Shown piece after piece: positions 13,250 to 25,883 of a DNA stretch of 64,000 nucleotides (position 1 is its first letter; each line of letters opens with the position of its first letter). Origin of the DNA: Eledone cirrhosa. Its lineage: Eukaryota. The translations under genes were made by a program, and so were the position numbers. A model generated the notes under the pieces. It searched no databases and was not told the DNA's origin. It was given only the letters and a program-made list of their open reading frames with translations. The stretch is taken from assembly GCA_964016885.1 (NCBI GenBank), contig OZ024747.1, positions 41,106,001-41,170,000 on the forward strand. The letters are read 5' to 3'.

Positions 13250-14910
13250 TGGAAATCTAACAAATATAGATGTTTACAACTGATTCAAAGCACTCGACAG
13301 ATTTCTAGAGTAAGTATTAAATTGATATTAAATAAATGGAAACTATATTTATAAAACCATATTTATTCTACTATATATATTTCAAGGGTACCAAAAATTT
13401 TGGTACGCTATCATCAGATAAAATACAAAATGTTTTATAAATATTTGACATGACCAACGGTTCAAGTTATCCCTGGAAAGAGAAGGGAAGAGAGGAGAAA
13501 AGTCAGATATTTAAAATTATTAATATGATTATGCAAATGATATGTATATTAAAGGGCTGAAAAAAACGTTATTTTAGACGCTATGGAAAATTTAAATATT
13601 TATGATAAGGAAAGAAGAGAAAGAGAAAAGAATTTTTGTTACCTATATTATGAGTTATAAAATTTTTGTTACCTATATTATGAGTTATAAAATTATATGA
13701 AGAATTATGGTTGTAAGTATTTTTATCTTATTACATTAGGATAGGTTATATGTATATAAATATCTATATATATATTAATAATTTGCGTATGCATTGATTG
13801 TTTATATAAACAAATGAGTTACGAAGGATGTTGAAAATTTTATTTTCAAGTTGTGAGATTAGAATAATTTGTGGATTTAAAAATTTTCAACATTGAGATT
13901 GTTTTTAGAATATTGTTAATTTATAAATTATCAAACTAAAATTGTTTTAAGAAGAAAGAAAAAGGAAAGGGAAGACCACTTGAACGTTAATTTAGGGAAT
14001 ATATATTTAGACATTTATCTATATTTATATGGAGAATTATTTATCTTATTATAATAATATATAAATATCTATATATGTATTTTAATAATAGCATATGTGT
14101 TTTTTTTAAAGGATAGTTTGTTTATAATATGAGTTACGAGGGATGTTGATTTATAAATAAGTAAAATAAATAGGTGTTTGTTCCTAATATAGGTTACTAG
14201 GGATGTTGATTTTATGTAAATAAATAGGTAATTACAATTTATAATGTTAAATAGGTAGTTACAATTTATAATGTTAAATAGGTAGTTACAAGTTATAATG
14301 TTAAATAGGTAGTTACAATTTATAATGTTAAATTAACGGAGTTATGTATAAAAAGTTTTTATGATTGAAAGAAGGAAAGATAACTCCAATTTTTTATTAA
14401 TCGCTAGTGGTGAACCAAATTTGGACAATTGCTTTAATAGGTCCTGTAATTAATTATTTATTCTAAAGAAATATGAATAATTAAACACCATCCTGAATAG
14501 GATATATTTTACTAAAAACAGTTAATGGTTATTAATCTACATTTAAAAATTAGCTTTAGAGGGTGTCATAAGAAAAATAAATAAAAAAATTAAGAAAAAA
14601 GAATTAAAGAATTTAAAAGAATTAAAAAAATTAAAATTAAAATTAGAATTATATAGAAGTACCTAATGTAGAAGTACATAAATATATATAAATAAATATC
14701 TATACATACACACATATATATATATTATAAGAAATGTTAAAGATATTATGATTTAGAGGTATTAATATATTAAAGTATTAAAAATATAAAATGTTAGAAC
14801 AGATAAGATCATTTTGGAGATTAATAGGAATAATATATTATAATTTACATATAGTTCTGAATGTAGAATTTTGGCAATGTTTACAACAACTAAATATTTC
14901 TGTTCTAAGA
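13250..14910. mobile_element. AT-rich hammerhead-bearing element related to 17065-19332
   Basis: 13289-13430 aligns to 17126-17265. A peptide-like segment at 14830-14912 is similar to one at about 17715-17800 (-). 27-bp tandem repeats at 14215-14335. Confidence 0.6.
13364..13425 (-). ncRNA. type I hammerhead ribozyme (family 1)
   Basis: UAUUUUAU-CUGAUGA-U AG C GUACCAAAA..UUUUGGUAC C CU U-GAAA-UAUAUAUA^GUAGAAUA; 8-bp stem I. Confidence 0.8.
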
Positions 14911-16162
14911 TTAATATATATATGTATATATATATATGTGTGTGTGTGTGTATATATATATATATATATATATATATATATATATATTCATATCTTTGTA
15001 TATGTAAAGGTATATATATGTATGTTTATATATGCATGTGTGTGTGCATGTGCGTGTTTGTTTGATATATGTATATAAACGTTTCAATCCAACAATCTAT
15101 TGACGAAATTGCGAAATCTTTGTATTGGATTCAAGTTTGATCTAACAAGTTTGATCTAACCCGACTCTGGAATCAAAGGCTCATCCGACCTCTGCTGTGG
15201 TAATATATACAGTTTATATAAGGCTGAAAAATAGATGCCTAATCACTGAATTATTAACGTAAATAGCAAGATGAAGTTGTATTGCGTATGGTGTGTGTGT
15301 TTATGTGTACGTGTGCTATATTGTGTGAAATACATTAATAAAAAGAGAATGGACGGAAGAGAATGACAGAAACAATGAAACAGGTTAACAACCCTTAGAA
15401 ATTATTTTTTCTCTATATGAGTCATTGTGCGCACGTTATAGAATAATAAATATATGAATTACTTTAAGAATAGTCATTTTATTATGAGTAGCTAATAAAA
15501 GAATCATCTAAACATTTATGATTGGACGCATGCTAAACCTTACATCTCTTTTCACTCATCGATTTAGATATATTGTCAACGGAAGTAATTTCCTTACAGC
15601 AATATTCGCTGTAACTACACAAAAATGACTTCATACAGAATTGCTCTTACTTTAATACAACTAGACGTAAATATATCTATACGTCGTTCGTAATTGTTGC
15701 TTTAATAGGTCCCGTAATTGTTTTTCAGATGGCCTTCACTCAAACGTAGCCCGGAAACCCACGTACGAGGTCTCCCACCAGACCCACACCGCACTAAAGA
15801 AATATTATTCCGGGTCACAACGTTTTGAGTTCAAACGCCGCTGAAATCTACTTTGCCTTTCATAATCATCGGGGTTGATAAAGAAAGTACAAAATCAGTG
15901 CTAGTGCTGTCTTCTCTCCTTCCATCTGTCACATCATGAATGTTCCACTGGATCAAGGAAGGTGAAGATGGAGAGGGTGCCCGTGTTTGCTCATGAAAAC
16001 GTGGACACTTAAAACACTTACCATGGTAAATACTACCATGTCATATGTTACACACTAACAATTCATACTCAAATGCGACTGGCGCCTGGCGTGTTACTAT
16101 CTATATATGTGTGCTCAGCTGTAGCTTTATAGGTGTAAAAATAAATACAATTACCCAGATAG

Positions 16163-16330
16163 TGGAAGCGCGTGGCTTAGTGGTAAGGGTGTTAGACGTA
16201 TGAGCATAATACCGCGGGTACGATCCCTGGACTGGGTTGTGTGTGGTAAGTTCTTGAACAAAAACACTCCCGTATACGCAGCTGAAAATAAGTACCAGCA
16301 ATAGTTGCGGGTTTTACCCTGCGATTGACT
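16163..16330 (+). mobile_element. tRNA-derived SINE (second family)
   Basis: A box TGGCTTAGTGG, B-box-like GGTACGATCCC, core gttcttgaacaaaaacact. Related to 40540-40778 (-). Confidence 0.7.
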
Positions 16331-16342
16331 AATCACTACAAC

Positions 16343-16397
16343 TAAATTGTCCAAATTTGGTTCACCTCAATTCAGAAATGCTTCCACCGGCCCCCTG
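16343..16397. mobile_element. MITE terminal inverted repeat end (PIF/Harbinger-like CAGGGG(G)CGGTGGAA)
   Basis: Reverse complement of 20412-20466. A similar end lies at about 31229-31245. Confidence 0.5.
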
Positions 16398-17195
16398 CAT
16401 ATATATATATATATATATATATATATATATATATATATATGCATGTATATATATATAAATATATATATCATAAAACGTGTCTATAGAATCAATCAGATAT
16501 TAAAATATATACTATTTCTTCCTCTAATCAGCATAATTAACCATATACATAATCAAATCCAGCAAGCTTTAAGAGTAAATTTTCTAACTGGGAAATCTCC
16601 GACAAATAATTGACCGCAGCCAGTTCGCGTTAACTCCGTTCCATTATTTATCAAATACTTCGGCAGCATGCAGAATCCGATCAAACATATATATATATAT
16701 ATATATATATATATATATATATATATATATATATGCATGTATATATATATATATATAAATATATATATATATATGCATGTATATATATATATATAAATAT
16801 ATATATGTATGTATATATATATATATATAAATATATATATATATATGCATGTATATATATATATATATATAAATATATATGCATGTATATATATATATAT
16901 ATAAATATATATATATATATATATATATATATAAATATATATATATATATATATATATATATATAAATATATATATATATAAATATATATAAATATATAT
17001 ATATATAAATATATATAAATATATATATATATATAAATATATATAAATATATATAAATATATATATGGAAAGTTATATTTAAATTGTTGGGTTACAACTA
17101 GTAAATATTTATAACTGATATAAAAGCACTCGACAAATATTTGGAGTATATTTACAATATTAAATAAATGGAAACTATATTTATAAAACCATATT

Positions 17196-17261
17196 TATTT
17201 CATTATATATATTTCAGGGATAACATATTAACAATATGCTATGCCTTCCTCAGACAAAATA
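17196..17261 (-). ncRNA. type I hammerhead ribozyme (family 1)
   Basis: Reverse complement of 19218-19283. Confidence 0.8.
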
Positions 17262-24940: not shown

Positions 24941-25002
24941 TAATTGTTTCTACTTTAGGCACAAGGCCAGCAATTACCCAGTGCATTACTGAATAATAAT
25001 AA

Positions 25003-25290
25003 TACTTTCTTTATTAACCACAAGGGTTTACATAAAGTAGACATTAAGGACAGTACAGGACAATACAGGACGGTACAAATGGGCATTTCTGCGTGTAAAA
25101 AACAAAAACAGAGGATGTAACAAAAATAACAATGAAAAATTCCCCAATAAGGAGTGAGAGAAGCACGAATGTCCCGAGTGAATGGGCCTACTCTGAGTAT
25201 GTGTCTGTAAATTAAAGGTGGAAAACTGGGAGAGGGCACTTGCCCTGGTGGTCAGGGTCACTGTGGCCTTTTAATGGGCTTTCTCCTCAA
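25003..25290 (-). mobile_element. Tx1-clade 3' fragment in (AAT)n
   Basis: 3' end ccttgtggttaataaagaaagtattattatt; degenerate RVNGPTL motif nearby. Confidence 0.65.
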
Positions 25291-25456
25291 ATAATAATAA
25301 GAAGAAGAAGAAGAAGAAGAAGAAGAAGAAGAAGAAGAAGAAGAAGAAGAAGAAGAAGAAAAAGAAGAAGAAGAAGAAGAAGAAGAAGATAATAATAATA
25401 GTAGTAGTAGTAGTAGTAGTAGTAGTAGTAGTAGTAGTAGTAGTAGTAGTAGTAGT
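25290..25456. repeat. compound (AAT)/(GAA)n/(TAG)n microsatellite
   Basis: Direct inspection. Confidence 0.95.
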
Positions 25457-25489
25457 AAACGAAAGATATAACTTTATATCATGGCTATT

Positions 25490-25569
25490 TATTTCATTAT
25501 ATATATATTTCGGGAATGCAGAAATTTACGTTTAACATAAATCAGAGCTTGCCTTCTTCAGACAAAATA
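25490..25569 (-). ncRNA. type I hammerhead ribozyme (family 1)
   Basis: UAUUUUGU-CUGAAGA-AGG..AUUUAUG uuaaa CGUAAAU..CCC-GAAA-(UA)5^AUGAAAUA. Confidence 0.72.
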
Positions 25570-25805
25570 CATGTGAGATGTATAAATTATTTCATAATAT
25601 ACCAGCAAGAAGGATCTTTACAGATCAGTGGCAAGTAGGTATATGACTTGAAAAAATCTCAAAATTTCCTAGGAAATCTCAAATGAACCTAAGAAAATGA
25701 TCCTAGAAAATTTTCAGATATTTTCAAATCATATACCTGCTTGTCATTGATCTGTGAAGATCATTCTTGCTGGTATATCATGAAATAATTGATACATCTC
25801 ATATG

Positions 25806-25883
25806 TATTTTGTCTGACGAAGGCATGTTCTGATTTATGTTAAACGTAAATTTCTGCATCCCCGAAATATATATAATGAAATA
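25806..25883 (+). ncRNA. type I hammerhead ribozyme (family 1)
   Basis: UAUUUUGU-CUGACGA-AGG..AUUUAUG uuaaa CGUAAAU..CCC-GAAA-UAUAUAUA^AUGAAAUA. Confidence 0.75.

Follow-up and report, generated by a model that had tools for sequence, protein, structure and literature searches.

Predicted type I hammerheads with an AU-palindromic stem III in a large Penelope-like element family of Eledone cirrhosa

Known systems and the present family

Hammerhead ribozymes are a described component of Penelope-like elements (PLEs), and in the one system studied in vitro insertion can do without them. Considered here is a 64,000-nucleotide stretch of the Eledone cirrhosa genome (GCA_964016885.1, contig OZ024747.1, positions 41,106,001 to 41,170,000, forward strand), with 'the window' referring to this whole stretch. 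Within the window are five motifs which are predicted to be, and very probably are, type I hammerheads, residing in the 3' untranslated region (UTR) or pseudo-long terminal repeat (pseudo-LTR) of 5'-truncated copies of an abundant, Hydra-clade-like PLE. That arrangement is already known; the present family is new to it, and is large. What the family adds is scale, a C·C loop in stem II, an A/G toggle in the stem III palindrome, and a strict rule as to which ends are paired in inverted insertions.

The closest described relatives are PLEs of the Hydra clade, for which the features given are DKT, RWK, a CxCX5C linker, CxxC/CxH, a C-terminal nuclease of GIY-YIG type, (TA)n targets, and hammerheads (Craig et al. 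2021; PMC8557442, section 11). The present family shares with these the C-terminal nuclease, DKT, CxCX5C, CxxC/CxH, an absence of CCHH, and the (TA)n target. Shared as well, including with Hydra-1_Obim, are a hammerhead on the sense strand near the 3' end and a short palindromic stem III, and a U·U basal pair in stem II also is displayed by many of the listed Hydra hammerheads (PMC8557442). Of the 26 Hydra entries in File S2 of that source, however, not one carries an AUAUAUAU stem III or an AUA triplet, and Hydra-1_Obim differs in having ACCA-A-UGGU as its stem III and GUU as its triplet. The present family differs further in a unit length of 3.7-3.9 kb, in RWR for RWK, in its tens of thousands of copies, among which frames are still intact, and in its 'tail', i.e., the sequence between the two end sites discussed below, which is about 88 nt versus 30-40 nt.

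A second point of comparison is the set of PLE hammerhead variants of Cervera and de la Pena (2014; PMC4209133). These too are of type I, with a weak palindromic helix III, a long helix II, and opposite-strand pairs a few hundred bp apart. AU-palindromic stems III and AUA triplets are already listed among them for Drosophila Penelope elements (Fig S3), that is, an AUAUAU palindrome in Drosophila virilis and an AUA triplet in D. willistoni. The present family is distinguished by an 8-nt palindrome, a longer AU-rich stem I, and an internal C·C loop within stem II. It is without a clear G10.1-C11.1 pair or an extra nucleotide following A9.

The Anolis Poseidon element PAc (Frangieh et al. 2024; PMC11167929) resembles the present family in possessing two 3' ends which bound a tail, a hammerhead upstream, AT-rich targets, and insertion from unprocessed RNA. 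PAc nevertheless is of a different clade, and its hammerhead and start sites overlap the start of its open reading frame (ORF), whereas here both lie 5' of the ATG. In addition, no strand difference in start site is seen with PAc in bulk, whereas here the two arms of each classifiable inverted insertion differ. Lastly, non-LTR retrozymes (PMC7229834; bioRxiv 10.64898/2026.07.22.740005) share type I hammerheads, very high copy number, and a link to PLE pseudo-LTRs. Retrozymes, however, consist of short, non-coding units in head-to-tail tandem, each unit with a hammerhead, whereas an autonomous element is the source of the present copies, which are scattered, truncated at the 5' side, and inverted. 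An identity as non-LTR retrozyme was rejected, as copies are dispersed or inverted and are colinear with an element that encodes protein.

Three insertions with five hammerhead folds

The five folds are found in three insertions, here called A, B, and C, with A a single insertion and B and C inverted pairs arranged head to head, the identity between arms being 99.1% and 90%, respectively. As B and C each are one insertion with two inverted arms, their arms are not independent copies. The insertions and their hammerheads, where N7 is the variable base of the core CUGANGA, are as follows.

13222..14915 (-): insertion A, a 5'-truncated PLE 3' end with the last 25 ORF codons (14841-14915), 3' UTR, hammerhead, and long 'tail' end; TA-rich repeats on either side
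13364..13425 (-): hammerhead A; U at N7; U·U as basal pair of stem II; cleavage predicted 3' of 13372
17067..17607 (-): inverted arm of insertion B, truncated at the 5' side; long end, ~137 nt beyond the predicted cut
17196..17261 (-): hammerhead in the inverted arm of B; N7 = G; sequence identical to 19218-19283
17608..19326 (+): main arm of insertion B, with C-terminal part of the nuclease (17627-17794), 3' UTR, hammerhead, and short end
19218..19283 (+): hammerhead B, main arm; N7 = G; stem I 19218-19225/19276-19283; core 19226-19232; stem II 19233-19263, followed by GAA; palindrome 19267-19274; H17 = 19275, with predicted cut after 19275
25458..25686 (-): insertion C, inverted arm, of an older subfamily; holds hammerhead 25490-25569; boundaries approximate
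25490..25569 (-): hammerhead C, inverted arm; N7 = A; 10-nt AU palindrome
25687..26031 (+): insertion C, forward arm; long end; holds hammerhead 25806-25883; boundaries approximate
25806..25883 (+): hammerhead C, forward arm; N7 = C; predicted cut after 25875

An earlier note on this DNA had proposed a type I hammerhead of a Penelope-like element, with palindromic stem III and AUA triplet, cleaving after position 19275. That identification is supported here and the predicted cut position agrees. All of the letters then described are present in the window, including CUGANGA with all four bases at N across the three elements. The core, CUGANGA ... GAAA ... UH, is found in order and with helix I open in all five motifs, each with GAAAUAUAUAUA following, and with one additional UA in C (-). 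A15.1-U16.1 of helix III is present. A general type I descriptor, as applied to the window, returned six loci, i.e., the five motifs plus 26143, and returned zero loci in each of 30 block-wise dinucleotide shuffles of the window. Stem I is UAUUUUGU/AUGAAAUA in B and C and UAUUUUAU/GUAGAAUA in A, with eight of eight pairs kept if G-U is counted. Stem II has U·U as its basal pair in A and A·C in C, its base being homologous between elements.

Target context is (TA)n. The inverted arm of insertion B terminates in (TA)n at 16687-17066, and the main arm, whose short end lies about 50 nt beyond the predicted cut, runs into (TA)n at 19319-19411. The nuclease C-terminus of that main arm is identical, at 56 of 56 amino acids, to that of a full-length copy found elsewhere (L165), and the coding part of insertion A closes with a diverged form of this same C-terminus.

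The parent element

Motif pairs in divergent orientation, 2.4-4.6 kb apart, enclose frames for reverse transcriptase (RT) plus nuclease. L165 is a full-length copy which shares the window B hammerhead and consists of an inverted arm, an upstream pseudo-LTR, a 755-codon open frame, and a downstream hammerhead. Its unit is 3,859 bp and that of a second copy (L040) is 3,676 bp, lengths which are due to a long 3' UTR. The sequence following the cut site runs on into the 5' UTR in upstream pseudo-LTRs, and pseudo-LTR layouts both tandem and inverted are seen, with ORFs intact.

Seven long frames, of 740-755 codons, were read for motifs. The RT motif YRDD is present in six of the seven, and a C-terminal nuclease motif, [IV][IV]YxC...VG, comes after it within the same single ORF, being found in all seven. 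As to motifs of the Hydra clade, DKT (a modified DKG), R.RWR, CxxC, and CxH are each present in 7/7 and CxCX5C in 6/7. CCHH is missing, with just a single cysteine lying between the GIY-like motif and the YIG-like motif, and the second Hydra motif reads RWR rather than RWK in every frame. Insertion into (TA)n and a sense-strand hammerhead near the 3' end, both of them features by which the Hydra clade is recognized, also are seen. The best database proteins are 36-42% identical to the element's protein, those with names near the top of the list being from Argonauta. As the element's nuclease is C-terminal, an identity as Naiad was rejected. A frame fragment in another locus, L170, is Hydra-like as well.

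Exact pattern matches across the 3.0-Gb genome number 34,744 with U before the core, 13,444 with C, and 32,037 for a palindrome variant, AUAUGUAU, with reversed-pattern controls of 86, 16, and 10, respectively. The total of roughly 80,000 is one of matches rather than of insertions, since inverted copies count twice and some AUAUGUAU matches may overlap. Axolotl, with 126,247 type I hammerheads (PMC7229834), has more than are found in the present family. At least six further subfamilies (e.g., L159, L084, L234, L197, L218) combine the same palindrome with another stem I and another distal stem II. A tree of long-tailed copies takes the form of a ladder of subfamilies, with that of window B at its tip on very short branches, and suggests what may be one long-lived, recently active master lineage. 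The Hydra clade can dominate a genome, and the family constitutes a young and very large natural dataset, with both intact ORFs and a ladder of subfamilies.

Stems I and II

The earlier note also had read the three elements as displaying a covarying stem I, a replaced stem II, and, with these, selection on structure. Within the window the first of these does not hold. The stems I of A and B differ at four positions, all of them one-sided A-U/G-U swaps that face a U-rich strand, and are trivial because a U-rich strand allows them. The 5' strand of A's stem I indeed pairs at five of five positions with the 3' strand of another subfamily and at four of five with its own. Stem II, in turn, is not replaced. 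It has a common base of three bp, then a C·C mismatch, then a further helix, and only the distal part varies between elements.

Covariation was assessed using an anchored alignment of 175 distinct rows. Of 245 copies, a tail-homology filter that is independent of the stems kept 212, the 33 dropped being those lacking a homologous, non-repetitive tail. Column pairs were scored with a G-test with average product correction against 300 tree-based null alignments, employing my own script, not R-scape, the latter having been the check called for earlier. The top five of 703 column pairs all are in stem II, at E <0.004, 0.007, 0.053, 0.29, and 1.2, so that two pairs are significant at E<0.05; an earlier run with fewer families (124 rows) had given one such pair. 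The claim of selection on structure is upheld, though by stem II genome-wide rather than by stem I. The first five pairs of stem I are kept in 152-159 of the 175 rows, and families do display joint switches (e.g., UUUGU/AUGAA vs ACUGC/GCAGU), with cognate scores exceeding cross-family scores, but these switches are confined to a few deep branches. Of the 175 rows, 154 retain C·C as the fourth pair of stem II. The basal pair of stem II is A-U in 59, G-U in 35, G-C in 29, A·C in 23, and U·U in 13, with its register ambiguous. Across subfamilies, the stem II covariation shows continued selection on the predicted ribozyme fold within transposing lineages.

Might the motif instead be a catalytically dead relic, kept as a structure for RNA packaging or protein binding, or as a DNA promoter element in the pseudo-LTR? 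Among 85 copies selected solely by their flanks, no core position is kept in fewer than 82, with N7 taking all four bases, but the tail is conserved just as strongly within the main group, so conservation by itself fails to single out the core. Genomic junctions, furthermore, are without a clear trace of cleavage, and Naiad PLEs spread without canonical hammerheads (PMC8557442). Yet an exact core with a free N7, a UH triplet, and three helices persist despite divergence of flanks and of stem I, and covariation of paired columns indicates RNA structure rather than a DNA motif. A relic of this sort consequently is judged improbable.

A number of results do weigh against identification of the motifs as hammerheads of a Hydra-clade-like PLE. 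In the copies of the window, the G10.1-C11.1 pair that is typical of both canonical and minimal forms is either missing or ambiguous. The hammerhead is not the predicted minimum-energy fold in any of the five motifs, whether as monomer or co-folded. Stem I provides no significant pair in the tree-aware test (best E of 9.5 over the 175 rows). Rfam, as searched with unmasked sequence, gives no hammerhead match, either across the whole window at E<=1 or across 19190-19310 at E<=10, and Pfam identifies no RT or GIY-YIG domain in either of two full frames. The unit of 3.7-3.9 kb exceeds the 'generally <3 kb' published for Hydra, though that length is a tendency rather than diagnostic (PMC8557442). 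The match to the Hydra clade, lastly, is one of motifs, with the N-terminal part of Hydra-1_Obim having been set against the element by eye.

Insertion ends

Copies end downstream of the predicted cut site rather than at it. Among 263 distinct copies, 110 end about 50 nt downstream and 88 about 140 nt downstream; the rest are 57 which were unclassified and 8 which continue into the 5' UTR. Inverted pairs combine the two types. Forty were found, and all 34 for which both arms are classifiable consist of one short end plus one long end. The ORF-bearing arm carries the long end in 8 of 13 cases and the short end in 5 of 13. The tail between the two ends (window 17067-17150 (-) and relatives) contains a conserved pair of motifs, ACUCC...GAGUG, which could fold as a hairpin and which is retained even in distant families; the pair is a candidate protein-binding or RT start signal.

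These ends bear on the idea that the cut itself makes a priming end, with the 5' product, ending in (UA)4, annealing to nicked (TA)n DNA and there priming reverse transcription, resembling what has been proposed for the telomere-repeat ends of endonuclease-less PLEs. The cut indeed would leave ...AUAUAUAUA as 3' end, and insertions are located in (TA)n. Only 137 of the 34,744 matches continue as (TA)n after stem III, however, versus 50 for the reversed-pattern control, which contradicts this as a main route and for which reason cleavage as source of the inserted 3' end was rejected. The clustering of ends well downstream of the cut site also counts against the idea, as does interruption of the repeat in the 32,037 AUAUGUAU copies. 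It is to be viewed as highly improbable.

Cleavage as source of the 5' end of full-length copies was rejected as well. (TA)7 directly precedes post-cut sequence in 78 genome matches, and none of the 30 examined continues into 5' UTR or ORF. Several of those 30 represent a stem III expanded by slippage, and the others could be explained by TA microhomology. Copies which include the ORF start were sampled too, as the best 130 of 150 copies listed, out of 8,272 candidates. Of these, 63 retain an intact hammerhead upstream. The remaining 67, as roughly mapped, include none that start at the cut site and three that start 4-8 nt after it, with no pile-up. As copies almost never stop at the cut site, and as intact hammerheads lie upstream, the template appears to carry an uncut or re-joined site. 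This agrees with the in vitro results with the anole PLE, for which insertion is from unprocessed RNA, the hammerhead is protein-assisted, two internal RT start sites bound a tail, and both strands are extended (PMC11167929).

By the mechanism proposed here, the RT-nuclease would nick both strands of a (TA)n target. For each strand, reverse transcription would then begin at one of two internal sites that lie downstream of the hammerhead, employing as template an element RNA with its hammerhead either uncut or re-joined. The outcome would be inverted arms, one with a short end and the other with a long end.

The stem III palindrome: one RNA or two

Stem III is a self-complementary 8-mer, which can supply two A-U pairs within a monomer and eight within a dimer. 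By prediction, closing stem III in the monomer costs 0.9-3.0 kcal/mol relative to leaving it open, and the dimer fold lies about 12.6-12.8 kcal/mol below two monomer hammerhead folds. Description of this stem as '(UA)n', as found in the earlier note, is accurate insofar as there is an AU palindrome, but the repeat is not invariant, as the abundance of AUAUGUAU indicates. At palindrome position 5, A and G have repeatedly replaced one another: a tree built from 142 long-tailed copies has nine such changes, of which well-supported branches force six or more. The mirror change, U4-to-C, has 355 matches, which is background level, and older long-stem families appear among that list of matches. A toggling A5/G5 along with a rare U4-to-C fits intermolecular pairing, as positions 4 and 5 are adjacent.

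From this comes a rather speculative reading, one that I consider unlikely though not fanciful, by which the roughly 80,000 hammerheads would record in vivo selection on an RNA dimer. A paired ribonucleoprotein would prime both strands of the target, with its geometry fixed, and the ribozyme would be a dimer-gated switch. The basis for this reading is that the only palindrome change to spread, A5/G5, and this at least six times, is one that keeps the two central pairs between RNAs; that the C·C loop in stem II is fixed; and that each inverted insertion uses both RT starts once. Against it is A3-to-G, which retains the predicted self-duplex energy but for which matches number only 369. Which variants spread is thus not a matter of duplex stability alone, and an A-U-R-U loop that is read by its sequence fits equally.

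Such a loop is the essence of a monomer alternative, to which I would assign a substantial chance though one still short of even. Here stem III would consist of two A-U pairs closed by an A-U-R-U loop, which would be recognized either by the element's protein or through a tertiary contact, perhaps that with the conserved stem II C·C loop, with the palindrome incidental and the element's identity unchanged. Among expanded lineages only A5/G5 alternates, with the equally duplex-compatible A3-to-G having failed to expand, and C·C is retained to the extent noted above. The anole PLE hammerhead is assisted by protein (PMC11167929), and cleavage in the monomer state is possible for invertebrate hammerheads that have two bp and a tetraloop (PMC7229834). 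Closure by two A-U pairs is energetically unfavorable, however; U4-to-C, which breaks the central dimer pairs, remains at background even as A5-to-G, which leaves these pairs as wobbles, arose repeatedly; and the adjacent positions 4 and 5 can pair only between two molecules. The natural variants A5G, U4C, A3G, and C·C loop can separate dimer from monomer models, and, were the dimer reading true, would make PLE hammerhead function testable.

As to cleavage, AUA is a slower natural triplet (PMC1636495). The ribozyme likely would cut after AUA only slowly or else conditionally, i.e., given two copies paired via the palindrome, as could occur within a pseudo-LTR-ORF-pseudo-LTR transcript, or given help from protein. 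A conditional cut would release or process unit-length element RNA, with the inserted end not defined by that cut.

Detection by databases

The family is missed by both Rfam and Pfam. The earlier note had suggested hiding by repeat masking, which is not borne out. Arrays from Tandem Repeats Finder that overlap the five motifs all score below the default of 50, DUST touches two of the five, and Rfam misses the sequence even unmasked, its only matches in the window being of a microsatellite-driven, microRNA type and below gathering scores. A published descriptor search found hammerheads in Hydra elements readily (PMC8557442). The family was not found in the octopus and cephalopod literature searched for Penelope and hammerheads, nor in those portions of the PMC8557442 and PMC4209133 supplements that were consulted, though a deposited repeat-database model may exist; PMC13282606, in the portion consulted, mentions only 'Penelope-like' counts.

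Other repeats in the window

A second hammerhead family is found at 26138-26214 (+), with a degenerate copy at about 29076-29155 (+). It has ACCUU/AAGGU as stem I, a long stem II, ACCGAUUCGGU as stem III, and a GUA triplet. It lies within a 270-bp repeat, with copies 89% identical, which ends in (TA)n and adjoins insertion C, and likely is another PLE 3' end. A probable third family, at 6499-6552 and 7587-7640 (+), is within a 310-bp direct repeat of 98% identity, with CUGAUGA, a weak stem II with a U·U base, ACGG...CUGU as stem III, and a GUA triplet; a variant beside another locus, L037, has a better stem I.

Three broken non-LTR copies, at 21640-24900, 50266-53116, and 60444-63555 (+), contain RT plus a C-terminal CCHC/restriction-like nuclease region, each ending in simple repeats, and I take these to be R4/Dong-like. 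At 11676-13193, 43344-46546, 53990-57486, and 35189-36901 (all -) are what presumably are several L1/Tx1-like pieces plus a single RTE-like frame, which carries zinc fingers at its C-terminus. An inverted repeat of about 700 bp, nearly perfect and TA-flanked (28335-28465 / 28464-28566 and 28073-28196 / 28704-28800), occurs also in L171 and is another inverted insertion. A short interspersed repeat of many copies, common to L170, is found at about 887-1011, 3986-4328, 29690-29842, 33749-33898, 37300-38697, and 63870-63998.

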